Assembly: GCA_029288865.1 (NCBI GenBank)
Contig: JARIGM010000017.1
Coordinates: 7,131-71,130, forward strand
Source of the DNA: Candidatus Kaiserbacteria bacterium
GTDB taxonomy: Bacteria > Patescibacteriota > Minisyncoccia > Phycocordibacterales > Phycocordibacteraceae
Length of the DNA: 64,000 nt
Reading direction: 5' to 3'
Below the pieces are notes generated by a model that was given only the letters and a program-made list of their open reading frames with translations, did not search any database and had not been told where the DNA came from. The stretch's first letter is position 1. Each line of letters starts with the position of its first letter. Position numbers and translations under genes: made by a program. Below are positions 41,747 to 57,515 of this stretch, one piece after another.

Positions 41747-42697
41747 GTGATGGATACACAATCACCTCGGATCTCGACCCGAAGCCTCATCGTTCTCGGA
41801 ATCATTTTAATAATCATCTGCGTGCTAGCGTTTCTTGCGTATTGGCAGCGCGCAGCACTCGTCGAAACGATACAGGGTATTAATACTCGCATGCATATGA
41901 ACGGGGCGTATACGCTCAGTGGTTCAGGGACAGATGTGACGGTCATACGACATGGCATTTTCGGTGATTCGAAAGTAACAGCAAAGTCAGGCACGATAGT
42001 GGATTTCGCTCATAGCTCGAACGGTTCGTACGCGCTCGTACTTTCTCCAAATGGCCATGACGAGGATGTGGTCGCGCTCAATGCTTCCGAAAAGAAGCTA
42101 ACTTCAGATGGGGGAATCAAAGCGGCTCTCGCAGTCTCCTCCGATGGAAGATATATCAGCTATACTCAGTTTACTCCTAAAGATGCACATCAGCAGATGC
42201 CAACGGATCAGCTTGCGGACTGGAGCGTAAGCATACTCGATACGCACGACAGCTCGGCCATGGTGTTTAAGTCGGCGTATGCACCACATTTCTACTCAAG
42301 TGGGGGCAAGTCGTATGTCGAGTTCATGGTTCCTGCTGGCATGGGAATCACTGATCTTGCGAAAAAGCAGACTCTCGTTATGAACATATTAGGGAATTCG
42401 ACCATCAGCCACCCGACGTACGTCTCGCCGACGGGAAACTATGCGCTCGTATTCTCTACGCTCGGGAAGCGGTATGCAGCATTTTCACTCGACTCGAAAT
42501 TCCCTCCAATTCCCACACCGATTGTTACGAACCTCGGCACCTACTCAACAGTCATCGGAATTGATGGAAAGGGCTTCTATGTTCCCTACTCGGCTCACGG
42601 TACGGCAGAGCTGGGGTACGTGCTTCTTTCCAACATGAAATCACCTGTGTGGGCGTACCAGACGCAAGGGGCGGCCATCGTAAAACTGATACCATAA
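41747..42697 (+). CDS. N-terminally TM-anchored beta-propeller-like (TolB/PD40-like) protein, cassette 1 small partner
   Basis: One N-terminal TM (LIVLGIILIIICVLAFLAYW). Repeats like YALVLSPNGHDEDVVAL / LAVSSDGRYISYTQF. Paralogous to 45850-46851 and 51709-52653. Confidence 0.5.
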   Translation: MMDTQSPRISTRSLIVLGIILIIICVLAFLAYWQRAALVETIQGINTRMHMNGAYTLSGSGTDVTVIRHGIFGDSKVTAKSGTIVDFAHSSNGSYALVLSPNGHDEDVVALNASEKKLTSDGGIKAALAVSSDGRYISYTQFTPKDAHQQMPTDQLADWSVSILDTHDSSAMVFKSAYAPHFYSSGGKSYVEFMVPAGMGITDLAKKQTLVMNILGNSTISHPTYVSPTGNYALVFSTLGKRYAAFSLDSKFPPIPTPIVTNLGTYSTVIGIDGKGFYVPYSAHGTAELGYVLLSNMKSPVWAYQTQGAAIVKLIP

Positions 42698-42699
42698 CT

Positions 42700-45600
42700 A
42701 TGAAGACTCTCTCAAAAATATCCGTGCTTGCGCTGCTCTTGCTTCTCACGGTATCGCCAGTATTCGCTGTCCAGAAAGCAGCTGATGGGGCAGATACCTC
42801 AGACGGAGGCGATGCATCAGGTACTCTCACCGACCACGGCAATACAAGGACAGACTCCAGCAATACGAGTACTAACTCGACTCCTACCGGTCCCGTCATC
42901 TCAGCGCAATACTTTTCAGGGGCTGCCGCATCCAACCCTCCTTATTACATACCTTCTTCTTCGGATCCCAATCAGCGTCCGCTCAGTGTAGCCTGTTCTC
43001 CTCATCAACAGGGATCCATAGCGATTGACTCGAACGGTGATGCTCACTCTGTTGACGATGGGACGTCACTCTCGACGACCAAAATGGTTCAGATGGGAAG
43101 ACAGAATCAGCTCCAGCCTATCACTGTGCTGAATAAGCTTATCTGGGTATCTGTAGTAGTCGGCGGCGAACATACGTCTCCAGGTAGCTATGCATATAAG
43201 CCTTATACATATACCTACAAGAATGCTGATGGTACCGTCATTGGCACTGAGACAACCACGAGCAACGATTATGCTGCTATGGCGACCTACTCGGACTCGG
43301 AAAGTGTTCATTATCCATGGCCGATCACGACCCTAACAGTGACGTCAGGTAACCAGTCGGTTACTGTGTATTGCGATAATGGTTCTGAAGATTCACTTTA
43401 TCTCCCGAATATCACTGCAAGTTTAAGCCCGGACGGCATCGTTCAAAGCGGCAGTACGGTTCATGTCGTGCCCGGCCAGCCTCTCTCGCTTACGGGTTAT
43501 GTGCAAGCAACTCACGGGTCAAGCGTGTTCGGAGGAGGATTCCATAACACCTTCATGATCCGCGCGTCTGGATCTGATCACTGGGCGTATAAGCAAGAGG
43601 CGACTCCGGATCTTATCCTTCCATATCGGGATGACAACGGTTCGGTAACCCTGAATACGACTCCCGTGACAGCGACGTTTCCCGCGTCTGTCTTCACCCA
43701 AGCCGGAACATATGAGTATCAATTCTGTGCGGACACTGATACTGATTGGCAAGGCTTGATTCACGAACGAAATGAATTAGATAACTGTACGGGCGGAGAC
43801 GGAGCGCATTTCGTGGTTGTCGATACTCCCGCGACTGCTCCTTCTCCTACTGTTTCGATTACTGCAAATCCGACAAGCATAAATTCGGGTGATTCATCGA
43901 CGCTTAGCTGGTCGTCTACGAACGCGACTTCCTGCTCCAGTACTGACTTTGCGACGGGGAATGCGGCCAGTGGATCAGTCAGAGTCACTCCTTCGTCGAC
44001 TGCTACGTATAATATAAGTTGCTCCGGTGATGGCGGTACCGCCCTTGGCTCGGTCACGGTTACTGTCTCTGCTCCGCCAGCTGCACCGACTGCATCCATC
44101 ACTATCTCGCCAGGATCGATCGATCAAGGCGATTCAGCGTCGCTGAGCTGGAGCTGCGGTGATTCGACTTCATCGTCCGGAGATAATTTCAGTACTGGCG
44201 GGGCATTGAGCGGAACAGTGTCCGTGTCACCGACTCAGACCACGTCCTATACGGTTTGGTGTAACGGTCCAGGTGGAACCACGCACGACAGTCAGGCACT
44301 TACCGTCGGTCCGAAGAAATATCCTGACTTGACTGCGCAGGTAGGTCCGGCAGCATCGGGATACTCGAATGAGAACATCCCAGTTAGTGGAACCATCTTG
44401 AATGGCGGCTCTGCCTCGACGCGCGATACCTTCAAGAACATGTTCCAGGTGTGCTCGAATAAGAATTGTGATGGATATAACGTGATCACGGAAGTGTCGG
44501 GTCGTATGCAGGCGCTCGCACCGAATGAGCAGAAAGATATTCGCGCCAATGTGACGGTTCCAAATTCCGGAGATTATTTCTATCGTGCGTGTGCCGATCT
44601 CGACGCATCTTGGCATGGAGTGGTGGATGAAGGGTCGGATGCTACTGAGAATAATAACTGCAGTGGCTGGCAAGACTTAAGCGTCAAGGATCATACTGCT
44701 CCTGACCTCATAGCAGGGGCAGTCTCGCCATCGACTGCGACTCCAGGACAACCAGTCACGTTCATGGCAGATGCGATCAATAACGGAAACGGGAACTCTG
44801 GTTCATTCCCTGTCATGTTCCAGATCAAGGATGGCGACACATTCACGAGTAACTACATATCTCTCGTGCCGAATGATTCCAAGACTGTGTCCGCGCAGCA
44901 TACGTTTGCAGAGTCGGGCGAGTATTCCATTCGCGCATGTGCGAACTTCGATCACCCATGGGCGGTCGTCGATACAAGCGAACTCAAGACCGATAATAAT
45001 TGCGGAGATTGGACCACTATCAGCGTTACGGCAGTTACGGAGCTGCCTGATCTCGAAGCGGGTGGCGCACCATCGGTAACGGTCGGAGCGAATGACCCGG
45101 TTGCGCTGACCGGCTCGGTCACGAACATCGGCGCGGGAAGTACGGGCGGATCGTTTGCTAACCTCTTCCGTGTGAAATCAGTGACAGCATCAGACTGGAC
45201 TACGTTCAAGAGCGGCTCGATCGGTGCTCCGCTCGGACCGAAAGGCTCAGGCAATGACTCAGAGCCGGTCGAGGTCAAGTTCTCGCCGAAAACCTTCCCA
45301 TCGGGTAACTACCTCTATCAGTATTGCGTGAATATGGATCTCGATAACGGTTGGGCACCATCAGTTCCCGAGGCAGCCGACGGAGGAAATAATAACTGTA
45401 GCGCCGTCGGTTCGCTCGATGTGCAGCAGCCACAACAGCCCGTTGACAACAATGACAATAATAATAACGGTAACGATGGGAATAATAACAACGGATCAAG
45501 TTGTAAAAATGCGCTGAAGGTGACCCTTACCGCGAGTCCGACGACCGTCTCACAAGGCAAGAGCGCAAAGCTCTCCTGGACCGCTGAAGGCATGAATCAG

Positions 45601-45789
45601 CAATGTACGCTCACCAGCTCAACAGGCAAGAGCTATCCATTGCCGGCAGATAAGTGTACGGAAGATTCTCCGGATGGAGGGTTCGACACAGGAGCGATCA
45701 CAAAGCAGACGGTCTTCACGCTCAATTGTGGTTCAGGCGGAACGGCACAAGCAGTCGTGAACGTGGTACCGAAATTCAACGAATTCTAG
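42700..45789 (+). CDS. giant secreted multi-domain surface protein (CARDB + Ig-like repeats), cassette 1
   Basis: Signal peptide MKTLSKISVLALLLLLTVSPVFA. Repeated PDL...N.G...ENNNCSGWQ (CARDB-like) and ...TLSWSSTNATSCS... Ig-like modules. Conserved C-terminus ...VVNVVPKFNEF. Confidence 0.7.
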   Translation: MKTLSKISVLALLLLLTVSPVFAVQKAADGADTSDGGDASGTLTDHGNTRTDSSNTSTNSTPTGPVISAQYFSGAAASNPPYYIPSSSDPNQRPLSVACSPHQQGSIAIDSNGDAHSVDDGTSLSTTKMVQMGRQNQLQPITVLNKLIWVSVVVGGEHTSPGSYAYKPYTYTYKNADGTVIGTETTTSNDYAAMATYSDSESVHYPWPITTLTVTSGNQSVTVYCDNGSEDSLYLPNITASLSPDGIVQSGSTVHVVPGQPLSLTGYVQATHGSSVFGGGFHNTFMIRASGSDHWAYKQEATPDLILPYRDDNGSVTLNTTPVTATFPASVFTQAGTYEYQFCADTDTDWQGLIHERNELDNCTGGDGAHFVVVDTPATAPSPTVSITANPTSINSGDSSTLSWSSTNATSCSSTDFATGNAASGSVRVTPSSTATYNISCSGDGGTALGSVTVTVSAPPAAPTASITISPGSIDQGDSASLSWSCGDSTSSSGDNFSTGGALSGTVSVSPTQTTSYTVWCNGPGGTTHDSQALTVGPKKYPDLTAQVGPAASGYSNENIPVSGTILNGGSASTRDTFKNMFQVCSNKNCDGYNVITEVSGRMQALAPNEQKDIRANVTVPNSGDYFYRACADLDASWHGVVDEGSDATENNNCSGWQDLSVKDHTAPDLIAGAVSPSTATPGQPVTFMADAINNGNGNSGSFPVMFQIKDGDTFTSNYISLVPNDSKTVSAQHTFAESGEYSIRACANFDHPWAVVDTSELKTDNNCGDWTTISVTAVTELPDLEAGGAPSVTVGANDPVALTGSVTNIGAGSTGGSFANLFRVKSVTASDWTTFKSGSIGAPLGPKGSGNDSEPVEVKFSPKTFPSGNYLYQYCVNMDLDNGWAPSVPEAADGGNNNCSAVGSLDVQQPQQPVDNNDNNNNGNDGNNNNGSSCKNALKVTLTASPTTVSQGKSAKLSWTAEGMNQQCTLTSSTGKSYPLPADKCTEDSPDGGFDTGAITKQTVFTLNCGSGGTAQAVVNVVPKFNEF

Positions 45790-45849
45790 AGCTCGTTCTC
45801 CACATGGAGGGATAGTGAAGGGGGGTGGGGTCTCGTATACTTCAGGTAT
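45790..45849 (+). repeat. conserved ~60-bp intergenic element between giant gene and next cassette (copy 1)
   Basis: gctcgttctccacatggagggatagtgaaggggggtggggtctcgtatacttcaggtatatgaatg... is near-identical to 51649-51708. Confidence 0.6.
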
Positions 45850-46851
45850 ATGAATGAAACTTCAGCCTCGCAATCCATACATTTCTCCGCGCCTCCTCCT
45901 CACCGGTTCTTCAATCTAAACAAGCACTTTCGGCTGTCGCTGGGAGTGCTTCTTGGTATACTCCTGATTCTTGTTTTCGTCGATCGCGCGCAGATCAAGC
46001 AATCACTCGATAGTATATCTGCACTCACGCACGTCAGCGGTAGTTATGTTATACGAGGTTCGGCAATCAGCCGGAGCGTCTTTAGGATCGGTTGGTTCGG
46101 TAATCATCCGGTGACAACTAAGTCCGGCACGGTGATTGACTATGCCCGCTCGGGTTCAAATCAGTACGCACTCGTACTCTCGCCTGATGGCCGCGACGAG
46201 TACCTCATGCACCTTGGCTCAAAAGCAGAAAAGCTTGTTTCGACGGGCGGGACCAAATCAGCACTTGTCGTTTCTGCGAATGGTGCACAACTCGCGTACG
46301 CACAACTTTCTCCAAGCGGTTTTACCAAGACTGGACCATCGAGCGGCATGAAAGATTGGTCCGTCAGCGTATACAGTCCTAAAACGAAATCTGCAATCGT
46401 ATTACCATCAGCGTATCAGCCGGAATTCTTTTCCATTAAAGGAAAGCAGTATATGGAATTCATGTCGCCTCGCGGTATGGGGATAATGGACTTAAGTATT
46501 GCGAACACTTACAACACATCCTATTCAACGAGCACCATGCCCGCGACCAATGTGCTTCATCCAACGTTTGTTACTCCAGATGGTGCCCATGCCCTTATAT
46601 ACAGTTCCGCGGCAGGTGCGTATGCGCTGTACACCATAAGTGGGAATTTCCCATTCTCATTCAAACAAGTCACTACGCTTTCCTCAGCATATGGTCAAGT
46701 GGTCGGAGTAGATGCGAAAGGCTTCTATGTAGTCTCTGCTAACACGAAGGCGAGATCTTCGGACGTGAGCTATGTATCGTTTGCACATCCTACTGCATCC
46801 CTTTGGACCTACCGATCGGATGGCCCTGCAGTCCTTAAGTTGATCCCGTAA
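45850..46851 (+). CDS. TM-anchored beta-propeller-like protein, cassette 2 small partner
   Basis: Paralogue of 41747-42697 (same N-terminal TM, same ...YALVLSPDGRDE... and C-terminal ...LKLIP). Confidence 0.5.
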   Translation: MNETSASQSIHFSAPPPHRFFNLNKHFRLSLGVLLGILLILVFVDRAQIKQSLDSISALTHVSGSYVIRGSAISRSVFRIGWFGNHPVTTKSGTVIDYARSGSNQYALVLSPDGRDEYLMHLGSKAEKLVSTGGTKSALVVSANGAQLAYAQLSPSGFTKTGPSSGMKDWSVSVYSPKTKSAIVLPSAYQPEFFSIKGKQYMEFMSPRGMGIMDLSIANTYNTSYSTSTMPATNVLHPTFVTPDGAHALIYSSAAGAYALYTISGNFPFSFKQVTTLSSAYGQVVGVDAKGFYVVSANTKARSSDVSYVSFAHPTASLWTYRSDGPAVLKLIP

Positions 46852-46860
46852 CTGGCGCCT

Positions 46861-49800
46861 ATGAAAACTATCCTTACTATCGTTCTCGCACTCGCGTTCA
46901 CTATTGTGGGCGCATCGTCAGTACTGGCTATCGGGAGGGGAGGAACTCCTCCGACCGTAAGTCTCTCAGCAAGTAATGTAGAAGTAAGTCCGGGCGACTC
47001 AGTCACTCTTACGTGGTCCTCTACGAACGCGACTTCGTGTTCCAGTTCTCAATTCCCTACGGGTGGCACAAGTGGCGCAATGACAGTGACCCCAGATAGT
47101 CTGCCTACCACGTACTCTATTACCTGCGATGGTGCCGGAGGTTCCGCAACTGACTCAGTCACAATACGGCAAGGGACGAGCGGTTCATGCGATGTTACCG
47201 TTACTGCCGGACAGACTCAGAATTACACCTTCGTGCCGAGTCTTCCCGCCGGTGCCTACGATTTGTCTTATGCAGTTATAGCGCATAGGGTAGATGGATA
47301 CTCGACTGATAATCAGCAATTTAATAGTGATGGTAACTACAATCAGCAGCCTTTCACAGTCAGTAAGACTTGGACTACTCCTGGAAATTACCAGATCCAA
47401 GGTTGGGTCACTTTTTCGCGTGCATCAGGTTGCTCGGCGGGGAGTGGCTGTGCGGGCACCGATCCGTATCAGCAGGATACGATGACTAGTCCAACTGGGT
47501 CCGTATACGCGGAGGACGCCCCCCCTGTTTGTCACGTCACAGTTCTGCCCGCGAAAACGAACCTCACTGCCGGAGGGGCACCAGATTTATACGGTACATT
47601 AGGCCAATCTATTACCGTGATGACCACGAACGGCCAGGCCGTTAATGTGACGAATAACGGGCAGGCAGATGCAGGAGGTTTTACGACCCGATTCACCGTA
47701 AATGGCGGCAGTCCAATAGATGTAAATACGGGAGGTCTTTCGCAAGGAGCCTCTACTGATCTCTCGGCAACTTTTCCTGCAGGCGTATTTCCTTGGGTAG
47801 GTGCTTATACTTATCAATACTGCGTGGACTCCAATGGAAATGTTGATGAGTCTGACGAGAGTAACGGTGATAATTGTAGGTCGGGAAATATATATATAGG
47901 TAGCGCGCCAAGCGCTTGTCAGCTCAATGTGCTAACTGGCCAATCGACGACTTTCCAGATGACTACGAATGGCTACCTAACCTCGCGCGCATATCATGCG
48001 AACTATTCGATCAACTGGGGAAACACGACCTCTACGGGCTGGATAGAGCCGGGCGCAGAGCCGTATGTCGCGTCGCATACTTGGGATACAGCGGGAGATT
48101 ACAAGGTAGAAGGATATGTCGGAGATATTCAGTATATAAATACTCCTCCTTCCTCAGGGGCAGGTTCCGCACCTGATACTCTGATTGCACCAAACGGGCA
48201 GACTGCTACCTGGGCTCAAGGTACAAGTAGCGCGGTTCCGAAGTACTGTAATGTCCATGTGTACGATCCAGCACCAGCACCGACTGCAAGCATTTCGCTC
48301 TCACCAAGTTCGGTCGCTTATGGTGGCTCTTCAACACTCAGCTGGTCATGTGGTAATGCGGACTACGGATGTACGGGCACAGGCTTTAGTACCGGAGGTG
48401 CGGCGAGTGGCAGCATTACGGTCTCTCCTACTAAGAGTACGTATTATCGTGTAGATGCGAGCGGAGCCGGAGGCACTACTTATGCGGACCAATCCCTTTC
48501 GGTAGGGCAGCCGTATCCGGATGTGACTGCAAGGCGCCCAGACACAGCAGTTTCCGCTGTGTGGGGAAATTCATTTAATGTAACCGGAACGGTAATCAAT
48601 ATCGGTGCGGCAGCTATGAATGGACCGTTCTCAGTGACTGCACAAGTATGTGATGGGTTTGGATCTTGCGGCCAATATAACCATCTCAGTGCCATCCAGA
48701 TAGGGACTTTGAATCCTGATCCCTCGGGCGTCGGCGTGACCATACCGGTCCCTTCTACTCCGTCTGCTAGTGTCGGAGGCGCGACATATTCGTACAGAAT
48801 TTGTGCTGATGAGGACGCCGTAGGAAATAAGCCAGTGAATGAGTCAAATGAAGACAATAACTGTAGCGGTTGGCAAACCATAAATGTCACTGCACCAGAT
48901 CTCACGACTGATACGAGTAGCGGCAACGGCGTGGCACCGACTGTCTACGGAGACCTGGGTCAGCCCGTATCTGTTTCCGGCATTGCCGTCAACATTGGTA
49001 ATGCGGGTTCTGGAGGGTTCAGCAATATGTTCGTAACAAATTGGAATGGTTCCAGTTGGAATTCAATTACTGACGGATCCTATATAGGCGGACTCGGGCA
49101 AGGAGGCAGTCAGGCAGGGTTCTCGGGCACCTTCCCTGCGAGCACTTTCGCATCTAAAGGTACCTATGCGTATTCGTACTGTGCCGGCATCAATAGTGGC
49201 TGGCAACAGAGCTTGAGTAACGAATCAAACAACAATAATAACTGTGAGTGGTCGGGAAATATTGTCATTCGCGCACCGGATCTTACTGCTGGCAACCCTA
49301 CGCCTTGGCCAGCTACAACGTTGGTGAATACACCTATTACATTCTCCACTCAAATAAACAACGGCGGGGATGGTAGCTCAGTTTCTTTCCCGGTCTTTTT
49401 CGAGGTAGTGAACGATGGAACCAAATTCGGCTACACGTATTTGAATGGTATCGCCCCGAATGCGCCCGTCACGGCCACTGCAAGTTATACGTTCACTTCT
49501 CCAGGTACCTATCAAGTCATGGCGTGCGTGAACAACAACACAAGCTGGAAGAATATAGCCCCAGAGTCAAAGTATGATAATGACTGCAGCGCCTGGGATA
49601 CGGTAAACGTCTATCCAGTTCCAACGGTAAGCCTCACTCTTACGCCTAATTCAATCGCGTATGGTGGGTCGTCCACGCTTAATTGGTCCTGCACGGGAGC
49701 AGATGCGTGTACGGGGTACGGCTTCAGTACGGGTAATGCGAATAGTGGTTCGATCACGGTGAATCCAACTCAGACTACCAGCTACAGTCTCGGAGCATGG

Positions 49801-51648
49801 AATGGCTCCGGAACAACGGCGAACACGAGCGCGACGTTGACAGTGGGCCAGCCTTATCCGAATCTTACCGCTGATAACAATGGTCCTGTGGTCGCTAAAA
49901 CTGGAAGCACTCCCACTCTATCTGGCACGATTCAAAATATCGGCGCGATCACGACATCCGGATCATTCTATGTCCAGGTACGGTTCTGTGATGCTAATTG
50001 TGCAACTATCGACCGGAGCGTATTCACTTCGACCCAAGCCCTTGCTCCCGGTCCATCACGAGCAGTTTCTTTCTCGCAATTAACGATGCCGAGTCGTGGT
50101 AATTACTACTACCAGATATGTGCGGATGCATATGGTGACGTGCATGAGTCTAAGGAAGATGATAACTGTTCTGGGTGGCAATCTGTCACGGTTACTGCTC
50201 CTGATCTCGTACCGACACCTCCAGGCCCTCCAATAGGTCCAGTATCCCCGACAACTGGCACTGCGGGTTCGCCGGTCACGTTTACCGCTTCCGCAAAGAA
50301 CCAGGGTGATGCTGCCTCTGATTCGTTCCCAATCTTGTTCCAGGTCGAAGAGAATGGAGACCTCTTCAGCAGCAACTATGTAGCGGGGCTCGCATCTGGC
50401 AGCACAGGCTCTGCGTCGGGTGCCTACACCTTCTCCAGGATGGGTACCTATCATGTACGCGAATGTGTGAATCAGATTCCGGACGTTAACCGAGATGTCG
50501 TAGCTGTTGAGAGTAATTACGGGAATAACTGTGGAGATTGGATTCCGGTGACTATATCGGCGCCGAATCCTCTTGGCGAGGGAGTTACTCCGACAACTGC
50601 GATTGCTGGAAGTCCTGTTACCCTCGTAGGCAGTGTCACGGATATGGACCCGAATACTGGTGTGCCATCGGCAGATATTACGACGTCATTCCCTAACTGG
50701 ATTATCATTCGTAATGCAGCGAATGGCGGCGGCTCGGATGTATTCGACAACAATGTAACCGCATCGCCTCTTGCCTCAGGCGCACACGAGACCATTAATG
50801 ATCTCCCGTACACGTTCCCTAGTGAAGGTACGTATTCCGTTCTCGTATGCGCAGGATACGGATTTAACGGCACAACGGATCCGTGGACCCGCGTTCCGGC
50901 GAACTCAAGCGGCGGCGGTTGCGGTCCGTGGACAAATATCACGGTGGGTCCTGCGCCTAAGCCTGATCTCATAGGACTTACTCCTCCAAACATTACGGTG
51001 CAGCAGGGCAATGCAGTACCGGTCTCAGGTACCGTGATGAACCAAGGCACTGTAGGTACGGGAGCAAGCTTCAAGAATATCTTTAAGACTGATCCTCAGG
51101 GAAATGGAACATGGCGTCCTGCTGCGGGCAGCTCAACGGGTGCACCGCTCGCCGGAGGAAATGCAACTGAATCTGTATCTGGCACGTTGCCCGCATTCAC
51201 TCAGCCAGGCGTGTATCCTTACGTACTCTGCGCCGATGAGGATATTGATAACGGTTGGGCAGGCAGTATCGATGAGGGTTCAAACGAAGGAAATAACTGT
51301 AGTGTTCAGCCTGGATTTATCACAGTACAACCCCCACCGCCTCCACCAAGCTGTTCAGGCATGCCAACGCTCAGCCTGACAGCCAATCCGAACCGCGTGG
51401 TTAAGAATGGCAGTGCGACATTGTCATGGCGCGTCACCAACACCCTCAATTCGTGTACAGTCACGAACTCGAATGGAACAACGATCGCAACGATTCCAGC
51501 AGGGCAGTGTTCAGACGTAGCAACCAGCTCGATGAGCACCGGACCGCTCACGAAACAGACCGTCTACTCCTTGAACTGTACGAATGCCGGAACTGCCTAT
51601 GCGACGACCACGGTCGTGAATGTGGTACCGAAATTCAACGAATTTTAG
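46861..51648 (+). CDS. giant secreted multi-CARDB/Ig-like surface protein, cassette 2 (1595 aa)
   Basis: Signal peptide MKTILTIVLALAFTIVGASSVLA. More than 10 repeats ending E(S/D)NE.NNNC. Conserved C-terminal ~100 aa after PPPPPPSCSG ending VVNVVPKFNEF. Confidence 0.7.
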   Translation: MKTILTIVLALAFTIVGASSVLAIGRGGTPPTVSLSASNVEVSPGDSVTLTWSSTNATSCSSSQFPTGGTSGAMTVTPDSLPTTYSITCDGAGGSATDSVTIRQGTSGSCDVTVTAGQTQNYTFVPSLPAGAYDLSYAVIAHRVDGYSTDNQQFNSDGNYNQQPFTVSKTWTTPGNYQIQGWVTFSRASGCSAGSGCAGTDPYQQDTMTSPTGSVYAEDAPPVCHVTVLPAKTNLTAGGAPDLYGTLGQSITVMTTNGQAVNVTNNGQADAGGFTTRFTVNGGSPIDVNTGGLSQGASTDLSATFPAGVFPWVGAYTYQYCVDSNGNVDESDESNGDNCRSGNIYIGSAPSACQLNVLTGQSTTFQMTTNGYLTSRAYHANYSINWGNTTSTGWIEPGAEPYVASHTWDTAGDYKVEGYVGDIQYINTPPSSGAGSAPDTLIAPNGQTATWAQGTSSAVPKYCNVHVYDPAPAPTASISLSPSSVAYGGSSTLSWSCGNADYGCTGTGFSTGGAASGSITVSPTKSTYYRVDASGAGGTTYADQSLSVGQPYPDVTARRPDTAVSAVWGNSFNVTGTVINIGAAAMNGPFSVTAQVCDGFGSCGQYNHLSAIQIGTLNPDPSGVGVTIPVPSTPSASVGGATYSYRICADEDAVGNKPVNESNEDNNCSGWQTINVTAPDLTTDTSSGNGVAPTVYGDLGQPVSVSGIAVNIGNAGSGGFSNMFVTNWNGSSWNSITDGSYIGGLGQGGSQAGFSGTFPASTFASKGTYAYSYCAGINSGWQQSLSNESNNNNNCEWSGNIVIRAPDLTAGNPTPWPATTLVNTPITFSTQINNGGDGSSVSFPVFFEVVNDGTKFGYTYLNGIAPNAPVTATASYTFTSPGTYQVMACVNNNTSWKNIAPESKYDNDCSAWDTVNVYPVPTVSLTLTPNSIAYGGSSTLNWSCTGADACTGYGFSTGNANSGSITVNPTQTTSYSLGAWNGSGTTANTSATLTVGQPYPNLTADNNGPVVAKTGSTPTLSGTIQNIGAITTSGSFYVQVRFCDANCATIDRSVFTSTQALAPGPSRAVSFSQLTMPSRGNYYYQICADAYGDVHESKEDDNCSGWQSVTVTAPDLVPTPPGPPIGPVSPTTGTAGSPVTFTASAKNQGDAASDSFPILFQVEENGDLFSSNYVAGLASGSTGSASGAYTFSRMGTYHVRECVNQIPDVNRDVVAVESNYGNNCGDWIPVTISAPNPLGEGVTPTTAIAGSPVTLVGSVTDMDPNTGVPSADITTSFPNWIIIRNAANGGGSDVFDNNVTASPLASGAHETINDLPYTFPSEGTYSVLVCAGYGFNGTTDPWTRVPANSSGGGCGPWTNITVGPAPKPDLIGLTPPNITVQQGNAVPVSGTVMNQGTVGTGASFKNIFKTDPQGNGTWRPAAGSSTGAPLAGGNATESVSGTLPAFTQPGVYPYVLCADEDIDNGWAGSIDEGSNEGNNCSVQPGFITVQPPPPPPSCSGMPTLSLTANPNRVVKNGSATLSWRVTNTLNSCTVTNSNGTTIATIPAGQCSDVATSSMSTGPLTKQTVYSLNCTNAGTAYATTTVVNVVPKFNEF
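51333..51648 (+). repeat. ~315-bp conserved 3' coding module of giant gene (copy in cassette 2)
   Basis: About 85% nt identity by eye to 56797-57114. Encodes PPPPPPSCSG...TLSLT.NP.RVVKNGSATLSWRVTNTLN.CTV.NS.G...IPAGQCSDVATSSMSTGPLTKQTVYSLNC.NAGTAYATTTVVNVVPK..EF. Confidence 0.7.
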
Positions 51649-51708
51649 GCTCCGCTCTCCACATAGAGGGATAGTGAAGGGGAGCAGGGTCTCGTATACT
51701 TCAGGTAT
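51649..51708 (+). repeat. conserved ~60-bp intergenic element (copy 2)
   Basis: gctccgctctccacatagagggatagtgaaggggagcagggtctcgtatacttcaggtatatgaacg... Confidence 0.6.
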
Positions 51709-52653
51709 ATGAACGAACCTCAACCCTCGCACGTGAATCGGCATACTGCTCTGATCATTGCCATAGTTCTTCTCCTTATAATAATCGGGTTCTTGTACTG
51801 GTTCCGTGCGCCGCTCGGCATGTTTTCTCGCAACTTTGCTGCACTCATGAGCATCCATGGCGAGCATATTGTGCAGGGGCCTGGGATCGGCGAGAAGGTG
51901 AGTACGATCGGATTCTTCGGCGAGCAGAAAGTCACTTCGAAAGCAGGAAGGGTCGTCGACTACGCGCACAGTTCGAAAGGAGACTTCGCGATCATTCTTT
52001 CTCCCGATGGTCGGGATGAAGACGTGTTCTCACTCAGCGATATGCAGAAGATCACGTCCGATGGCGGTATCAAATCATCGCTTTCGGTATCACCTGATGG
52101 AACGAATGTTGCATATGCGGCGCTGAAGCCTGGCGGCTATCATGCATTCGGTCCTTCCTCTAATATCGCAGACTGGAGCGTCCGTATCCATGATGTGAAA
52201 TCTTCGGTGGAGCTCGTTTTCCTCGGTGCGTATCAGCCGCAATTCTTCACCTCTGGCACCTCGACAGTAGTGGCATTCATGCAGCCAGACGGCATTATGA
52301 TGGATAACGTCACTACTCATACCGTTCAGCTCGTAAAAGAGTCAGGGAGCACGTCAACGATGTCTCCGCTGTATGTCTCGCCAGACGGGAAGCATCTCCT
52401 TTCTTATGATCAATCCAAATCGCAGTACGTGCTTTACGACATGTCAGGAACATTCCCATTCACACTCAAGCCCCATGTCCCAATGCCTCCGCTCGGCCAT
52501 GTGATCGGTATGGATAATAATGGAATCTATAGCTCAGTCGTATCATCTCAGGCCAAGAGGGCGGATGTGCTGTATACGACGTTCGCAAAGCCTTTCTCAG
52601 TCGCCTGGACATATGCTTCCAGCGGAACGGCTCTCTTTAAAATGACTCGATAA
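51709..52653 (+). CDS. TM-anchored beta-propeller-like protein, cassette 3 small partner
   Basis: Paralogue of 41747-42697 and 45850-46851. Confidence 0.5.
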   Translation: MNEPQPSHVNRHTALIIAIVLLLIIIGFLYWFRAPLGMFSRNFAALMSIHGEHIVQGPGIGEKVSTIGFFGEQKVTSKAGRVVDYAHSSKGDFAIILSPDGRDEDVFSLSDMQKITSDGGIKSSLSVSPDGTNVAYAALKPGGYHAFGPSSNIADWSVRIHDVKSSVELVFLGAYQPQFFTSGTSTVVAFMQPDGIMMDNVTTHTVQLVKESGSTSTMSPLYVSPDGKHLLSYDQSKSQYVLYDMSGTFPFTLKPHVPMPPLGHVIGMDNNGIYSSVVSSQAKRADVLYTTFAKPFSVAWTYASSGTALFKMTR

Positions 52654-52659
52654 CTTCAT

Positions 52660-55600
52660 ATGAAAAAAATCCTGATCCCGCTCGTGCTGCTCGCCTCGCT
52701 TACCGTCGCTGCTCCGCATATGGCGCTCGCAAATGACGGCGGCTCCTGTGATTCGACGATATACCAGGGGAATTCCATCGTATTTTCTGCGGAAGATGCG
52801 CCAGGTGGGTCGAATGCAGCCACATACGAGCTGGATATGTCGGGTCCATCTAATATGACAGTCACGCAACGGCAGAACTACGGTGGGGGTACCCAGCCTC
52901 CGACATACGGAATCATGGCAACTTTCCCATTCAATAAACCGGGTTCTTATACCATTACTGCCCGTATCTACGACATCAACTACCCTGTCGGATATCAGCA
53001 AGGTGGAGCTTCTGGTGCCGTGCCTCTTCAGATAAATGCCGGCACTTACGATAATCCGCAAGCGCAGAAGGCCTGGGTTGCTGACCAAAACGCAAACCCT
53101 CCGACCTGTACGATCACGGTGCAACCTACGCCGAAGCCGGATCTCGTGCCCGGAACTGGCCAGACAATATATGGGACAGTGGGGCAGAACGTGGCTATTC
53201 CTGCAAGCGTGACCAATAGCGGGAATGCAGACGCGAGCGGATTCACAGTATGGTTCAATTCCAACGGTCAGAATCCGACTGTTTCAGTCGGAGGTCTCGG
53301 TGCGGGAGCGTCGCAAGATGTCTCGACGACGCTACAATCTTCCGGTTGGGGAGCGGGCACGTACTCATATCAATACTGCGTCGACCAGTACGGACAGGTG
53401 GATGAATCGAGTGAAGACAATAACTGTACGAGCGGGTCGATCATCCTGAACAATCCACCCTCGCCTGATGTGGCCATCACTGATATCTGGCAGAGCGGGA
53501 CCGCGATTGCTGGACAGCCAGTGACGCTTTGGGCATACGAGCAGAACAACGGTAATGCGGATTCAGGTAACTTCACGGTCCAATTCTTTAGCTCTGATGG
53601 GTCCGTGAACGCATATAGCGGAAATGTGTACCTCACGAGCTCCGGCGGCGCAGCGAATACATCCATCTCCTATACCTTTCCCTCTGCAGGAACGTATTAC
53701 TTGAAAGCTTGCGCGAGCGTCGCGAACGATTCAAATGGCGCGAATAACTGCAGCGCGGATTGGATCCCAGTAACGGTCTACCCGGTCCCAACCGCAAGTC
53801 TTTCTCTTAGTCCAAACTCGGTTCCTTATGGAGGTTCCGCAACTCTAAGCTGGTACTGCGGCAATGCGGATTCATGCGGAGGGACGAACTTCAGTACGAA
53901 CGGCCAGGTGAGCGGTTCGGTCACGGTCTCGGCAACCCAAACCACGACATATTCGCTTTGGTCAAATGGTCCCGGCGGCAACACTCCTGCCTATCAGACC
54001 CTCACGGTGGGTCCGCCATATCCCGACCTCACTGCTGGAACGGGCGGCCCGCTGACGGTGGTCTCGAAGGCGAACTTTAGCCTCGGTGGCACTGTCTACA
54101 ATATTGGCGATACGGGAACACCGAGCTCTTTCAACAATCTCGTACAGATCTGTGACCGCAACGATGGTACCTGTCCGAACTATTACCAAGGGATGTCATC
54201 TGGAATGTCTGCACTTGCGAACGGCAACTCGCAGGGCACGTCCTTCACGGCTCACATCGATGCTCCGGGAACCTATTATTATCGCCTTTGCGCTGACCTC
54301 GATACCAGTGGGAACGGCACGATCGCCGAATCTAATGAAAGAAATAACTGCGGCGTCTGGCAAAGCATCACCGTACTCGCACCAGATCTCACCGTCGGTG
54401 GCATAAACACTACCTATGGTGTACTCGGTCAAAGTGTATCCGTGAGTGGTACTGCAATAAATAATGGGAATGCCTCGACCGGCGGCTTCAATAGCATGTT
54501 TGTGACCAACTGGAACGGAAGCTCTTGGCAGACGATCACTTCAGCGAATTGGACCTCGAATCTTGGTCCTGGCGGATCAGCATCCATCGGTGGTACATTC
54601 CCCGCGAATGCATTCTCACATCGAGGCACTTATCAGTATGCATATTGTGCGGGCATCGATTCTTCATGGAACTGGAGCTTAAACAATGAATCGAACACTA
54701 ATAATAATTGTATAAGTGGCGGCTCCCTCGTCATCCAAGCTCCTGATCTTACTGCGGGCGGCGTTTCGCTCAGTGGCACGGCGATCGCTGGTCAGCCGAC
54801 AGGCTTCAACGCCACTGCGTATAACAATGGCGATTACGGGTCCAATGCCTTCCCGGTGATGTTCCAGGTACAGAATAGTAGTGGTCAGGATGTCGCGTAC
54901 GTCACGAGCGGCTATGTGGGAGGTCTCGCACCTGGCGGATCAACAGGCGCGAGCGCATCGACGGTCTTGTCGAGTGCCGGCACATATAACGTCCGTGCTT
55001 GTGCGAACCGCAATTCAAGCTGGGGACTCGTAGTCACTAATGACACGGATACTACAAATGACTGCGGCGGTTGGACTTCTTTCACGCTCTATCCAGTCCC
55101 GACGGCAAGCATCTCGCTTTCGCCATCCTCGGTCGCATACGGCGGCTCCACCACTGTTACGTGGTCATGTGCGAGCGGCGCAACCTCGTGCGCGGGAACT
55201 AACTTCAATACAAATGGCGCCATGAGCGGCTCGGTAACTGTCTCTGCGACGCAGACTACCACCTACACGGTCTGGGCTAACGGTCCTGGCGGCACTACAA
55301 GCGCTGCGCAAACCCTGTCGGTCGGTCCTCCGTATCCAGATCTTACAGCGAGCATCACCAGTGGCTGGATCACGGCTACAATGAATACGAGCTTCACGAT
55401 GAATGGTACGGTCTCTAATATCGGCAACGCAGCAACTCCGGGATCTTTCCCGAATATGGTACAGATCTGCGATTCGAATTGTGCTACGTACAATCAACGA
55501 TATTCAGCCTCGACAGCAGCACTCGCGAATGGCCAGTCTCGAGCTATCTCGTTCACTGCAAGCATACCAACGGCGGGGTCATATTACTTCCGCATCTGTG

Positions 55601-57114
55601 CCGACGTTGACTCGAATTGGAATGGTGTCGTAGATGAAGGCTCTGTTCCAAGTGAAGACAATAACTGTACTAACTGGCAGAACCTTACTGTGGCGGCACC
55701 GAATCTTACGCCAGGTGCGCTCACTCCGACGAGTGCAGTAGCGGGCAGTCCTGTAACATTCAGCTCAGACATCACTAATAGCGGAAATTCTGACGCTCCT
55801 TCATTCCCTGTGCGTTTCCAAATTCAGGAGAATGGCGATGTATTCACGAGTACGTATAGCGGTTCTGCGCTTCCTGCTGGTTGGCTGCGTACTATGTCGG
55901 GTAGTTATACATTCGCCAGTGCCGGTACTTATCATGTGCAAGCATGTGCAAACGAGAACGCGGCAGGTACGATGATCGTTCAAGAGTCGAACTATAGAGA
56001 TAACTGTACTGCTTGGACTGCCGTCACGGTGAGTCCGCAACCGAAGCCGGACCTCATACCAGGTAGCGCTCCGACCATAACAATCACTCGTGGCCAGACG
56101 GCAACGGTAACCGGAAGCGTCACAAACAGCGGAAACCTTGGTGCTACTAGTTTCCCGACAATGTTCGCGACGAATCTTAATCAAGCACAGAATGGATGGA
56201 ATACCATGCAGGCCGGCCCGACGGTCAGCTCGCTTGCGGTGAACGGCACCACGAACATAACGAGCACGTTCCCTGCAACTACCTTTCCGACAGCTGGTAC
56301 GTATACATACACCTACTGTGTGAATACGGACACAAGCTGGAGTCATCCGCTCGATGAGGGTACAGCGACCGGTAATGACTGTGCGTGGCCATATGGTTCT
56401 ATTATTGTGAATGACCCGACCTATCCAGATCTCATCGTTACCAGTGCACCGAATGTCTCGGCTCAGGTAGGACAGGTACAGAACATCACGCTCAGCGGTA
56501 CGGTGAAGAACCAGGGCACCGCAGATGCTGGATCGTTCCATAATCTTATGGCGACGAATCAAACGCAAAACGGATGGAGCGACTCGACCGACGCGACAAC
56601 TATCAGCTCGCTTGCTCAGGGACAGTCTGCGACGGTATCCGGATCGTTCCCGCCAGGAACCTTCACGAGCCCAGGTTCATATGTGTACGAGATATGTACG
56701 AACATGAACCGAAGCAACGGATGGGCTGCAGACCTCGATGAGGGCACCTCGGCGAATAAGGGTAATAACTGTACAACCGGTGTCATAACAGTATCCCCAC
56801 CGCCACCGCCACCGAGCTGTTCAGGCACTCCGACACTCAGCCTGACATCTAATCCGAGCCGTGTGGTCAAGAATGGTAGTGCGACATTGTCATGGCGTGT
56901 CACCAACACCTTGAACGCATGTACGGTGAAGAACTCGAGCGGCGCGACTCTCGCGACGATACCAGCAGGGCAGTGCTCGGATGTGGCGACCAGCTCGATG
57001 AGCACTGGACCGCTCACTAAGCAGACCGTGTACTCGCTCAACTGTTCGAATGCTGGAACTGCCTATGCGACCACGACTGTCGTGAACGTAGTGCCGAAAT
57101 ACGGCGAATTCTAA
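52660..57114 (+). CDS. giant secreted multi-CARDB/Ig-like surface protein, cassette 3 (1484 aa)
   Basis: Signal peptide MKKILIPLVLLASLTVAAPHMALA. The same repeat architecture. C-terminal module ~85% nt-identical to that of cassette 2, ending VVNVVPKYGEF. Confidence 0.7.
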   Translation: MKKILIPLVLLASLTVAAPHMALANDGGSCDSTIYQGNSIVFSAEDAPGGSNAATYELDMSGPSNMTVTQRQNYGGGTQPPTYGIMATFPFNKPGSYTITARIYDINYPVGYQQGGASGAVPLQINAGTYDNPQAQKAWVADQNANPPTCTITVQPTPKPDLVPGTGQTIYGTVGQNVAIPASVTNSGNADASGFTVWFNSNGQNPTVSVGGLGAGASQDVSTTLQSSGWGAGTYSYQYCVDQYGQVDESSEDNNCTSGSIILNNPPSPDVAITDIWQSGTAIAGQPVTLWAYEQNNGNADSGNFTVQFFSSDGSVNAYSGNVYLTSSGGAANTSISYTFPSAGTYYLKACASVANDSNGANNCSADWIPVTVYPVPTASLSLSPNSVPYGGSATLSWYCGNADSCGGTNFSTNGQVSGSVTVSATQTTTYSLWSNGPGGNTPAYQTLTVGPPYPDLTAGTGGPLTVVSKANFSLGGTVYNIGDTGTPSSFNNLVQICDRNDGTCPNYYQGMSSGMSALANGNSQGTSFTAHIDAPGTYYYRLCADLDTSGNGTIAESNERNNCGVWQSITVLAPDLTVGGINTTYGVLGQSVSVSGTAINNGNASTGGFNSMFVTNWNGSSWQTITSANWTSNLGPGGSASIGGTFPANAFSHRGTYQYAYCAGIDSSWNWSLNNESNTNNNCISGGSLVIQAPDLTAGGVSLSGTAIAGQPTGFNATAYNNGDYGSNAFPVMFQVQNSSGQDVAYVTSGYVGGLAPGGSTGASASTVLSSAGTYNVRACANRNSSWGLVVTNDTDTTNDCGGWTSFTLYPVPTASISLSPSSVAYGGSTTVTWSCASGATSCAGTNFNTNGAMSGSVTVSATQTTTYTVWANGPGGTTSAAQTLSVGPPYPDLTASITSGWITATMNTSFTMNGTVSNIGNAATPGSFPNMVQICDSNCATYNQRYSASTAALANGQSRAISFTASIPTAGSYYFRICADVDSNWNGVVDEGSVPSEDNNCTNWQNLTVAAPNLTPGALTPTSAVAGSPVTFSSDITNSGNSDAPSFPVRFQIQENGDVFTSTYSGSALPAGWLRTMSGSYTFASAGTYHVQACANENAAGTMIVQESNYRDNCTAWTAVTVSPQPKPDLIPGSAPTITITRGQTATVTGSVTNSGNLGATSFPTMFATNLNQAQNGWNTMQAGPTVSSLAVNGTTNITSTFPATTFPTAGTYTYTYCVNTDTSWSHPLDEGTATGNDCAWPYGSIIVNDPTYPDLIVTSAPNVSAQVGQVQNITLSGTVKNQGTADAGSFHNLMATNQTQNGWSDSTDATTISSLAQGQSATVSGSFPPGTFTSPGSYVYEICTNMNRSNGWAADLDEGTSANKGNNCTTGVITVSPPPPPPSCSGTPTLSLTSNPSRVVKNGSATLSWRVTNTLNACTVKNSSGATLATIPAGQCSDVATSSMSTGPLTKQTVYSLNCSNAGTAYATTTVVNVVPKYGEF
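56797..57114 (+). repeat. ~315-bp conserved 3' coding module of giant gene (copy in cassette 3)
   Basis: See 51333-51648. Confidence 0.7.
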
Positions 57115-57408: not shown

Positions 57409-57414
57409 AGCTTC

Positions 57415-57515
57415 AGAGGCAGTAGCATTTTTAGGTACGCTGTATTTTTCCGCTGAAAAATCAGCTCGCTCTCGCGCCGACGCGCTCCGAGAGCACTAAA
57501 AATGCTACTGCCTCT
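57415..57515 (+). ncRNA. structured RNA-like element, copy A (20-bp outer helix + conserved core + covarying inner hairpin)
   Basis: Outer helix agaggcagtagcatttttag / ctaaaaatgctactgcctct (20/20 bp). Core GGTACGCTGT-[ATTTTTC cgct GAAAAAT]-CAGCTCGCTCTCG-loop-CTCCGAGAGC. Lies 66 nt 5' of prfA. Second copy at 62451-62597. Confidence 0.45.

Follow-up and report, generated by a model that had tools for sequence, protein, structure and literature searches.

To our knowledge, the Patescibacteria (CPR) are ultrasmall bacteria whose cultivated members are all epibionts on other microbes, and the means by which they attach to their hosts and retain proteins in the envelope are largely obscure beyond type IV pili. 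A locus in a Candidatus Kaiserbacteria genome raises the question of whether such cells could hold large secreted proteins at their surface by means of a small membrane protein encoded next door. An earlier note on this DNA had described three tandem paralogous pairs of a small membrane protein and a large secreted CARDB/Ig protein, and the open reading frames are found where it placed them in the window (the whole 64,000-nt stretch of DNA that was analysed). The three gene pairs occupy positions 41747-57114, all on the + strand, and in each the gene for the membrane protein (S) comes before that for the secreted protein (G), with a spacing of 2–9 nt (Table 1). S1 likely starts at the ATG at 41750, which is preferred because the deposited protein is 315 aa long, while the true start of G1 is likely the ATG at 42700, giving a 1029-aa protein with a canonical signal peptide (MKTLSKISVLALLLLLTVSPVFA). 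The genome had also been assigned to the CPR, in agreement with the LOOT RNA found here and with the relatives of the locus, all of which are Patescibacteria MAGs.

Table 1 Positions of the three S–G cassettes, their subfeatures and the flanking genes in the window.
Feature	Position	Strand	Description
SLT-like coiled-coil protein	40240..41721	+	upstream flank; SLT-like domain C-terminal
S1	41747..42697	+	predicted bitopic N-in protein with PD40/TolB-like beta-propeller ectodomain, from the ORF and S-family membership
G1	42700..45789	+	secreted, 1029 aa; alternative GTG start at 42649 gives 1046 aa (ORF 42649-45789)
G1 C-terminal module	45523..45786	+	ends VVNVVPKFNEF-COOH
Junction element J1	45790..45849	+	precedes S2; putative promoter of cassette 2
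S2	45850..46851	+	333-aa predicted bitopic membrane beta-propeller protein; copy used for the structure model
G2	46861..51648	+	secreted, 1595 aa
G2 C-terminal module	51373..51645	+	modelled as Ig-like sandwich; the tail PKFNEF (final six residues) is not in any strand
Junction element J2	51649..51708	+	precedes S3
S3	51709..52653	+	314-aa predicted bitopic membrane beta-propeller protein
G3	52660..57114	+	secreted, 1484 aa
G3 C-terminal module	56839..57111	+	ends VVNVVPKYGEF-COOH
rpmE (L31)	57160..57408	+	downstream flank
prfA	57582-58532		downstream of rpmE

We regard this array as an expanded local version of a two-gene surface cassette that is found across the Patescibacteria and probably holds fast-evolving surface proteins. 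The cassette is unannotated: Pfam and NCBIfam contain no model for the S–G pair, and a literature search found no paper describing it. The reading that we favour, at a probability of about 0.5, is a surface module of two components: G would be attached, as a fibre, to the membrane propeller S by its conserved C-terminal domain and tail, and its variable distal parts would diversify. That the pairs are a product of assembly or chance open reading frames is scarcely credible, given that the giant proteins are only 31–45% identical overall, which rules out the assembly duplication considered in the earlier note, and that assemblies made independently (NCBI, ENA, JGI and Logan) also contain homologous pairs.

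The junction elements that precede the second and third cassettes are ~60 nt each and ~86% identical, with four differences in the last 50 nt before the ATG, and correspond to the near-identical intergenic elements noted previously. Both carry a -10-like hexamer 8 nt before the start codon of S (TATACT-N8-ATG), and J1 has no Shine-Dalgarno sequence. On the strength of these -10-like hexamers, J1 and J2 are putative promoters; a sigma-70 consensus scan did not call the hexamers of either element as a promoter, and no conserved RNA structure was evident in them by eye.

The small proteins S1–S3 (314–333 aa; 36–39% mutual identity, with 42% also given for S2 versus S3) each have a basic N-terminal tail followed by a single hydrophobic helix. 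The AF2 model of S2 (pLDDT 90.9, pTM 0.85) consists of an N-terminal helix and then ~25 strands, and its best fold matches in the PDB (Foldseek) are TolB propellers (E 2.3e-7), bearing out the suggestion that these proteins are beta-propeller-like. Similarly, the S family profile matches WD40 and TolB sequences, while Pfam PD40 recognises S3 only and below its cut-off (18.9 versus 20.9 bits; E 1.4e-3). The ectodomain (~270 aa) is accordingly modelled as a PD40/WD40-like beta-propeller, a closed multi-bladed reading that comes from the ~25 strands and the TolB match rather than from a direct count of blades. The family comprises 211 cluster representatives at E ≤ 1e-3 and 114 at E ≤ 1e-10, nearly all of them 297–340 aa long, and 117 of 123 members have the N-terminal hydrophobic helix. 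A search with an alignment of the closer S proteins found no relatives among GTDB species representatives or JGI metagenomes.

PD40 propellers gate the active sites of S9 peptidases, and the S profile also shows weak matches to S9 peptidase propellers, so that S might be an enzyme that processes G, such as a peptidase or a sortase-like transpeptidase. This is very improbable. S has the propeller only, with no alpha/beta-hydrolase or other catalytic domain, and searches of S against Pfam and NCBIfam gave no enzyme match. No candidate catalytic residues were seen in S, and the positions that are near-invariant among 63 members (G, S in an SPDG repeat motif, G, A, W, P and G) read as structural repeat positions in the alignment.

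CARDB domains (PF07705) are significant in all of the giants (E 1.8e-14 and 54.2 bits in G1, 6.1e-42 and 142.4 bits in G2, and 8.4e-70 and 231.8 bits in G3, against a cut-off of 22.7 bits), although we know of no established function for this domain. HMMs built from the giants themselves identified four, eight and nine CARDB-like modules and three, four and three Ig-like modules in G1, G2 and G3, respectively, and the CARDB module ending E(S/D)N..NNC is present as 10 copies of a 31-nt family. In G1, the signal peptide is followed by a unique N-terminal region, one CARDB, two Ig-like and three CARDB modules, a poly-N/D linker and the C-terminal Ig module. G2 is arranged as signal peptide, Ig, novel domain, CARDB, novel domain, Ig, three CARDB, Ig, four CARDB, PPPPPP and C-terminal Ig module, and G3 as signal peptide, novel domain, two CARDB, Ig, three CARDB, Ig, four CARDB, PPPPPP and C-terminal Ig module, such that a Pro-rich or poly-N/D linker lies directly before the C-terminal module in each giant. 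No LPXTG motif, transmembrane segment or lipobox is present in G1–G3. PADLOC models gave no match to S1–S3 or G1–G3 at E ≤ 0.01, and the sole PHROGs match was to one Ig-like segment of G1.

Conservation is uneven along these proteins. The C-terminal ~88 aa are the most conserved part of the giants (89% identity between G2 and G3, and 45–50% between G1 and either) and the N-terminal 200 aa are the least conserved (25–33%), a polarity that fits an anchor at the C-terminal end. DGR-type diversification was set aside, as the C-terminus of G is the conserved part and not the variable one. The C-terminal module is modelled as an Ig-like sandwich (pLDDT 88) whose last strand ends at residue 93 of 99; its PDB matches are generic Ig-like folds only (best SoxY, E 4e-3), and it matched nothing in Pfam or NCBIfam at E ≤ 0.1.

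A back-translated pattern of the tail, VN(V/I)VPx(F/Y)x(E/Q)F, was found at 39 genome loci and 55 metagenome loci, so that conservation of the last 10 residues is partly a product of the search pattern itself. An ORF matching the module HMM was present in 71 of these loci, nearly all of the labelled records being Patescibacteria, and the search beyond this genome that the earlier note had proposed thus reveals a CPR-wide distribution of the module, its breadth being measured by DNA pattern scans, as a word-index protein search (6, then 1 match) missed the window's own proteins. The tail pattern had no match in the viral contigs scanned. The 46 complete module-bearing proteins range from 65 to 1595 aa (median 547 aa), with G2 and G3 the largest, and one protein of 102 aa consists of a signal peptide and the C-terminal module, with nothing else.

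A cassette was defined as an S gene followed directly by a same-strand gene for a signal-peptide protein with the Ig module and the tail pattern, and all three pairs of the window are cassettes in this sense. Elsewhere the association is also close: among the 34 distinct S genes with readable downstream DNA, 31 have a secreted-type partner as the next gene or fused to them. In 21 of the 36 S genes overall a complete C-terminal-module protein lies directly downstream, in nine the downstream ORF is cut by a contig end (most with a hydrophobic, signal-peptide-like N-terminus), three are exceptions to the pairing and two have no downstream DNA, although most of these counts come from loci selected by the tail motif and the sample is biased to that extent. 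Loci recovered via the S protein alone show the S-then-G arrangement again, and one locus (L007) encodes a natural fusion of membrane helix, propeller, Gly-rich linker, Ig domain and C-terminal module. In this sample the small proteins are seldom found without an adjacent partner, and the strict pairing previously suggested holds from the S side, but not from the module side: of 36 informative C-terminal-module genes, 16 lack a propeller gene upstream. Nor is the partner always a giant, as the S partners vary from ~300 to 1595 aa.

These 16 cases and the 102-aa protein indicate that the module is able to work when no propeller is encoded next to it. Together with its VNVVPxFxEF tail, the C-terminal Ig module might, then, be a general CPR signal for sorting, attachment or wall binding that is read by a factor other than S. 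In that case S would be an accessory directed at the variable region of its cognate G, for example helping it to fold or assemble or serving as a co-receptor subunit. By sequence comparison, S proteins and the C-terminal module do not co-diverge. For example, S is only 42% identical between pairs 2 and 3 whereas the modules are 89% identical, so the divergence of S is not driven by module specificity, and S might bind elsewhere on G or might not bind G. In addition, S and the variable parts of G are both fast-evolving. A ~470-aa unannotated polytopic membrane protein encoded directly upstream of S in three genomes could be the required machinery, but neither the window nor most of the loci encode it, and no candidate for such machinery recurs throughout the loci examined. 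Furthermore, the natural fusion puts S and G in one structure, and the other kind of upstream partner is likewise a scaffold of the peptide-binding type anchored in the membrane, which fits a docking role: in L021, L028 and L045 the gene upstream of the module gene encodes a membrane helix and TPR repeats rather than a propeller, and hhalign found no relationship between the alternative upstream membrane proteins and the S family. On balance, we consider a general signal of this kind unlikely.

Under the docking reading that we prefer, the array would consist of three tandem transcription units, one per S–G pair. S would have a short basic cytoplasmic tail, one transmembrane helix and its propeller on the outer face of the membrane, while G would be exported through Sec as a chain of CARDB and Ig-like beta-sandwich domains. 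The C-terminal domain and tail of G would form the cell-proximal attachment element, with the membrane-anchored propeller as docking partner of this end, and the fibre would be kept at the membrane non-covalently. The variable N-terminal and repeat regions would project through the wall and diversify, and may serve in host adhesion or as a surface coat. Cassettes would be gained and lost by duplication and recombination, with the conserved 3'-end and junction sequence as the site. Binding of short peptides is established for certain TPR domains and propellers, such as that of the EEVD tails of Hsp70/90 (by TPR) and of the colicin TolB box (by TolB), and the upstream gene, where it is not a propeller, often encodes another N-terminally anchored scaffold with TPR repeats. 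A point against docking is the position of the propeller, which would sit at the membrane, beneath the wall, where the free tail must reach. More tentatively, there may be a lineage-wide, hitherto undescribed, sortase-independent form of surface display in the Patescibacteria, in which a C-terminal Ig-like domain with a free ...VNVVPxFxEF-COOH tail is captured by a dedicated membrane-anchored peptide-binding scaffold encoded immediately upstream (a PD40 propeller here, TPR elsewhere); on this view the array at the rplY...rpmE-prfA locus would be the principal source of the variable proteins that these episymbionts use for host contact or as a coat.

The cassette is often found at one chromosomal address, upstream of rpmE-prfA. 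In 22 of 71 loci prfA follows at a distance of 276–2462 nt, and on the upstream side lie the SLT-like gene and L25. Homologues of the SLT-like protein occur near C-terminal-module genes in 14 other loci; a fixed trio of SLT-like protein, S and G was rejected, as the 471-aa gene upstream of S in L006 encodes a different, polytopic protein. Relative to the closest relative (L001), the flanking proteins are 82–85% identical, whereas S reaches at most 42% and G at most 46%, and both the number and the order of cassettes vary between relatives in a comparison that covers L001, L002 and L047. The cassette thus diverges much faster than its flanks, in keeping with the diversifying family proposed when it was first described; the adhesin role or the host- or phage-receptor arms race suggested there may be a cause.

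A conserved address among housekeeping genes would suit a universal envelope component better than an accessory adhesin, and the G proteins resemble S-layer proteins in being Ig-rich, large and fast-evolving. The pairs could therefore form a two-component S-layer or coat like SlaA/SlaB of Sulfolobus, with G as lattice or canopy protein and S as membrane stalk, in which case the three pairs would represent different versions of the coat, used as alternatives or assembled together, and not adhesins. Predicted S-layer proteins have been reported in the Patescibacteria, including the Paceibacterales, in a preprint according to which archaeal S-layers can be anchored via co-expressed accessory proteins (10.1101/2024.05.28.596244). 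However, module-bearing proteins of 65–1595 aa with variable domain content are hard to fit to one lattice design, three diverged pairs are present within one genome, and 15-domain linear repeat chains are more fibril-like than lattice-like, which makes a coat of this type improbable.

The locus is a concrete candidate for surface attachment in the CPR, being a conserved two-gene unit at a conserved chromosomal address. Its rate of evolution far exceeds that of the neighbouring genes, as would be expected of surface proteins that are antigenic or make contact with a host. With the C-terminal signature, candidate surface proteins can be catalogued for any CPR genome. If the tail does dock to the propeller, it would represent a new class of protein-anchoring signal and offer a way to tag or remove surface proteins of the CPR in those few strains that are genetically manipulable.

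Individual parts of the cassette have counterparts in known systems. The S ectodomain is predicted to be of the PD40 type and is closest in fold to TolB, whose propeller binds partner proteins and short disordered peptides. In contrast to TolB, S has no TolB N-terminal domain, the model showing an N-terminal transmembrane helix in its place, and the TolB equivalog TIGR02800 scores at best 17.1 bits against S (cut-off 343 bits), covering one repeat. The general view is that Patescibacteria have neither an outer membrane nor a Tol-Pal system. SlaA and SlaB of Sulfolobus, like other S-layers held by a co-expressed membrane protein, are likewise encoded side by side, one being a large beta-sandwich surface protein that evolves fast and the other its small partner anchored in the membrane, a likeness of gene arrangement alone. 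No sequence or fold homology to them was detected, and in the present cassettes S is a propeller anchored at its N-terminus, G is a linear repeat chain and several diverged pairs lie in tandem.

The T9SS CTD, LPXTG/sortase, PEP-CTERM/exosortase and PGF-/PEF-CTERM/archaeosortase systems also place a conserved C-terminal element on otherwise unrelated, variable secreted proteins of one lineage, and the T9SS CTD shares with the G module an Ig-like fold, a length of ~85 aa and a position at the extreme C-terminus. Unlike in these signals, the motif of G is followed by neither a transmembrane helix nor a basic tail, as the protein stops at ...EF. It has no linked sortase-like enzyme, and its conserved neighbour appears to be a non-enzymatic scaffold. 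The giants are not LPXTG sortase substrates, as they end VNVVPK(F/Y)(N/G)EF with nothing beyond; the module is not recognised as a T9SS CTD, having no Pfam or NCBIfam match and generic Ig-like PDB matches; and, judged on the G sequences, they are not of the PEP-, PGF-, PEF- or GlyGly-CTERM types, with no transmembrane segment after the motif and no NCBIfam match. Finally, although G has no known adhesive domain or covalent anchor signal, it resembles the fibrillar adhesins of Gram-positive bacteria in having a signal peptide, a variable N-terminus, a tandem beta-sandwich stalk, a Pro-rich linker and a conserved C-terminal element, all in the same order.

The six open reading frames claimed in the earlier note were all recovered on the forward strand, as three tandem pairs (cassettes) of a small membrane-anchored propeller protein (S1–S3) and a large secreted CARDB/Ig-like protein (G1–G3), with a gap of 2–9 nt between the genes of a pair. 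The copies share 31–45% protein identity, too little by far for assembly duplicates; that explanation was rejected, as the note had expected. The ~60-bp intergenic elements before S2 and S3 (J1 and J2) are both present and are ~86% identical to each other. They differ by 4 mismatches across the 50 nt preceding the ATG, and their likeness (repeat family D4) continues beyond them, over the final ~36 nt of the upstream giant gene and the initial ~23 nt of the small gene that follows. A hexamer resembling a -10 element (TATACT, TATAGT or TACTAT) lies 7–15 nt 5' of the start codon in the junction elements, and the same class occurs at this distance from the S start codons of three relatives' loci (L001, L006 and L047). 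These hexamers were not called by a sigma-70 consensus scan, and no Shine-Dalgarno sequence is visible in the junction elements or upstream of the S genes of the three relatives. The hexamers and this absence tentatively suggest one promoter per cassette with a short or absent leader, G translation possibly being coupled.

Features of the cassette region and of relatives' loci
Feature	Locus	Coordinates	Strand	Remark
S1	window	41747-42697	+	ORF; ATG 41750 agrees with deposited 315-aa protein
G1	window	42649-45789	+	ORF; ATG 42700 gives 1029 aa with canonical signal peptide at start
J1	window	45790-45849
S2	window	45850-46851	+	ORF
G2	window	46861-51648	+	ORF
J2	window	51649-51708
S3	window	51709-52653	+	ORF
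G3	window	52660-57114	+	ORF
Pilin-like genes	window	38413-38964, 38977-39480		N_methyl motif
Coiled-coil/SLT-like	window	40240-41721
L31	window	57160-57408
rpmE-prfA	window	57160-58532		directly downstream of last C-terminal-module gene
LOOT RNA	window	28460-28578	-	Rfam RF03000
phrog_2155 match	window	43831-44307		G1 residues 378-536
G2 segmental repeat	window	48845-48915 / 50150-50220
G3 segmental repeat	window	54332-54402 / 55649-55719
TPR protein	L021	6007-6729	-
TPR protein	L028	4006-4740	-
TPR protein	L045	2927-3814	+
S-G fusion	L007	5081-7036		single ORF
Polytopic protein	L006	6558-7973
Polytopic protein	L047	4537-5946		= L106 9241-10650
Polytopic protein	L008			directly upstream of S
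Y1 transposase	L006	11667-12353
102-aa module protein	L047	11184-11492		= L083 1251-1559
Module protein	L023	6346-7197

The small proteins are 36–39% identical pairwise, and each has a basic N-terminal tail and a single hydrophobic helix, which would fit an N-in, type II topology. A profile built from six close members matched 211 proteins at E<=1e-3, of which 114 reach E<=1e-10, among 1.84 billion cluster representatives, nearly all of 297–340 aa and aligned as one stretch; 117 of the 123 members checked carry the hydrophobic helix at the N-terminus, and ...(L/I/F)(I/L)P forms the C-terminus of many. The proposed beta-propeller likeness was borne out by an AlphaFold2 model (63-sequence alignment; pLDDT 90.9, pTM 0.85) comprising an N-terminal helix, a second helix and ~25 beta-strands, for which Foldseek ranked TolB propellers first in the PDB (E 2.3e-7), with further propellers of the PD40 and WD40 types next; the sequence profile is consistent with these matches. 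Membership of the TolB family itself was rejected (17 bits against a 343-bit cut-off). Almost-invariant residues occupy structural repeat positions, and no catalytic domain or known enzyme family was matched in Pfam or NCBIfam. The sole annotation of a related protein is 'MAG: hypothetical protein [Patescibacteria group bacterium]'.

All three giants match CARDB with high significance; they have a signal peptide and lack a transmembrane segment, LPXTG motif and lipobox. Read with HMMs built from the giants themselves, G1 runs signal peptide, unique region, CARDB, two Ig, three CARDB, poly-N/D linker and C-terminal Ig; G2 signal peptide, Ig, novel, CARDB, novel, Ig, three CARDB, Ig, four CARDB, PPPPPP and C-terminal Ig; and G3 signal peptide, novel, two CARDB, Ig, three CARDB, Ig, four CARDB, PPPPPP and C-terminal Ig. 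A segmental repeat of ~1.3 kb (an Ig and about three CARDB modules) is found in both G2 and G3, and this internal duplication is therefore older than their split. The two Ig-like 'TLSWSSTNATSC' modules of G1 match phrog_2155 ('virion structural protein', E 1.4e-25); phage structural proteins share this type of Ig-like module.

Every giant of the window and of two syntenic relatives ends in an ~88-aa module with conserved cysteines and the terminus V-x-V-N-(V/I)-V-P-x-(F/Y)-x-(E/Q)-F-COOH; by HMM it is related to the internal Ig-like modules but specialised. AlphaFold2 (pLDDT 88) models it as an Ig-like sandwich whose last strand stops at ...VVNVV, with PKFNEF in no strand; its PDB matches are generic Ig-like folds only (best SoxY, E 4e-3), and no Pfam or NCBIfam model covers it. 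A degenerate 33-nt pattern back-translated from the tail, for which ~9 chance matches are estimated in 596 Gb, identified 39 loci in GTDB species representatives. An ORF matching the module HMM is present in 29, and in at least three more the ORF is cut by the locus edge yet adjoins the same RF1 gene. Nearly all are labelled Paceibacterota, Saccharibacteria, Parcubacteria, Nomurabacteria, Kaiserbacteria or 'Patescibacteria group', so the module does occur in other CPR genomes, where the earlier note had proposed to seek it; about five matches outside these phyla look like chance. Metagenomes yielded 55 loci and viral contigs none. The pooled genome and metagenome set holds 77 unique modules, whose conservation over the last ten residues is partly imposed by the search pattern; homology is supported because the HMM match spans the whole module. 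Complete module-bearing proteins (n = 46) range from 65 to 1595 aa (median 547), G2 and G3 being the largest, and one 102-aa protein consists of a signal peptide and the module, nothing else. A genuine module protein (E 1.7e-17) with a tail almost identical to that of locus L013 lies on a contig binned as Sulfuricellaceae (L023), probably a mis-binned Patescibacteria contig.

Searching with S alone also recovered the S-G arrangement in relatives' loci. Two pairs are present in L001 and, between an SLT-like gene and L31, in L002; L006 has one pair, and L047 has one between L25/SLT and L31 and a second after RF1. In L046, L048, L049 and L051, S precedes an ORF whose N-terminus resembles a signal peptide and which runs off the contig. 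The strict pairing claimed earlier holds from the side of S but not from that of the module. Over all loci, 21 of 36 distinct S genes are followed by a complete module protein and nine by an ORF cut by the contig end, one is naturally fused to G, two have no downstream DNA available and three are exceptions. L080 and L083 are further loci with tandem arrays. The fusion (L007) joins membrane helix, propeller, Gly-rich linker, Ig and module in 651 aa; its host, a Paceibacterota MAG, also carries a separate TPR-module pair (L045). From the module side, S lies directly upstream in 19 of 36 informative cases, one is the fusion, and 16 have no S. Several of these 16 have a different N-terminally anchored protein upstream. 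For example, in L021, L028 and L045 a membrane-helix TPR protein (Pfam TPR, E 1e-14 to 1e-16) sharing the motif W(S/A/G)RA(N/Y)PGN directly precedes a short module protein (190–545 aa) and seems to be a second kind of partner, in place of the propeller. In L016 the upstream position is taken by two related proteins, each a membrane helix joined to an unassigned ectodomain; profile comparison found these proteins unrelated to S. In L006, the pair and an adjoining Y1 transposase gene separate L2 from S19 within a ribosomal-protein operon, a hint of cassette mobility. A ~470-aa polytopic membrane protein directly upstream of the pair in three genomes (L006, L047 and L008; 32–38% identity between copies) has no Pfam or NCBIfam match, is absent from the window and all other loci examined, and could be an optional third component.

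The window cassettes sit among housekeeping genes: they are preceded by two pilin-like genes, by L25 and by a coiled-coil protein that has an SLT-like domain at its C-terminus, and are followed by L31, RF1 and ribosomal protein S2. An RF1 gene (70–82% identical) follows 276–2462 nt downstream on the same strand in 22 of 71 tail-pattern loci. In the window and 22 other loci rpmE-prfA comes straight after the last module gene, an arrangement of many Patescibacteria loci that gives the array a conserved address on the chromosome. Homologues of the SLT-like protein (33–85% identity), whose architecture we take to resemble PcsB/CwlO, lie near module genes in 14 other tail-pattern loci and L25 in 8, mean locus length being only 5.9 kb; the SLT-like gene probably reflects conserved synteny, not a functional trio. 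The type IV pilin-like genes occupy the same position, just upstream of L25, in L002 and L047, and the window also carries a LOOT RNA (78.4 bits against a 46.4-bit gathering score). Compared with L001, the closest relative, flanking proteins (transketolase subunit, aldolase, L25, SLT-like) are 82–85% identical, whereas cassette proteins are far more diverged (best matches 40–42% for S and at most 46%, locally, for G). The comparison of copies across relatives proposed earlier showed that cassette number, order and type vary: L001 has two pairs against three, its SLT-like gene sits between them, and one cassette type lacks a clear window counterpart (22–25% identity to any window S).

S would be a non-enzymatic scaffold for binding proteins or peptides, held at the outer face of the membrane, and the favoured reading, which we infer at a probability of about one half, is that the C-terminal module and tail of G dock on this propeller. 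Docking is favoured because of the scaffold nature of S, the polarity of G and four links between them: S is encoded directly upstream of G, the two are fused in one genome, a membrane-anchored TPR scaffold replaces S in others, and pairs duplicate as units, so that S and G numbers are equal. TPR scaffolds are a class known to bind C-terminal peptides. Conservation of the giants is highest at the very C-terminal end, which follows a Pro-rich or Asn/Asp-rich linker, and lowest at the N-terminus, a polarity shared by anchored fibrillar surface proteins; their N-terminal 200 aa are 25–33% identical within the window against 89% for the module of pairs 2 and 3, in keeping with the divergent giants and conserved module first described. 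Two facts weaken docking most: the divergence of S does not follow that of the module, which is the better conserved of the two inside genomes (89% versus 42% between pairs 2 and 3, 72% versus 34% in L080 and 54% versus 44% in L083), and S is missing next to many modules. Two alternatives therefore remain live. Both observations would suit a module that serves as a general signal for some other reader, S then working on the variable portion of G. Alternatively, the pair may form an S-layer-like coat with a membrane stalk; a preprint (10.1101/2024.05.28.596244) reports S-layer proteins predicted in Patescibacteria and points out that accessory proteins anchor some archaeal S-layers.

Other than CARDB, no Pfam, NCBIfam or PADLOC model matched S or G, and a full-text literature search found no description of the pair. 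The general logic, in which a variable surface protein carries a conserved element at its C-terminus and has a partner of its own, is already known; the parts that appear to be undescribed are the Ig module ending in the VNVVPxFxEF tail, the partner in the form of a membrane-anchored PD40 propeller or TPR protein, and the fixed Patescibacteria locus.
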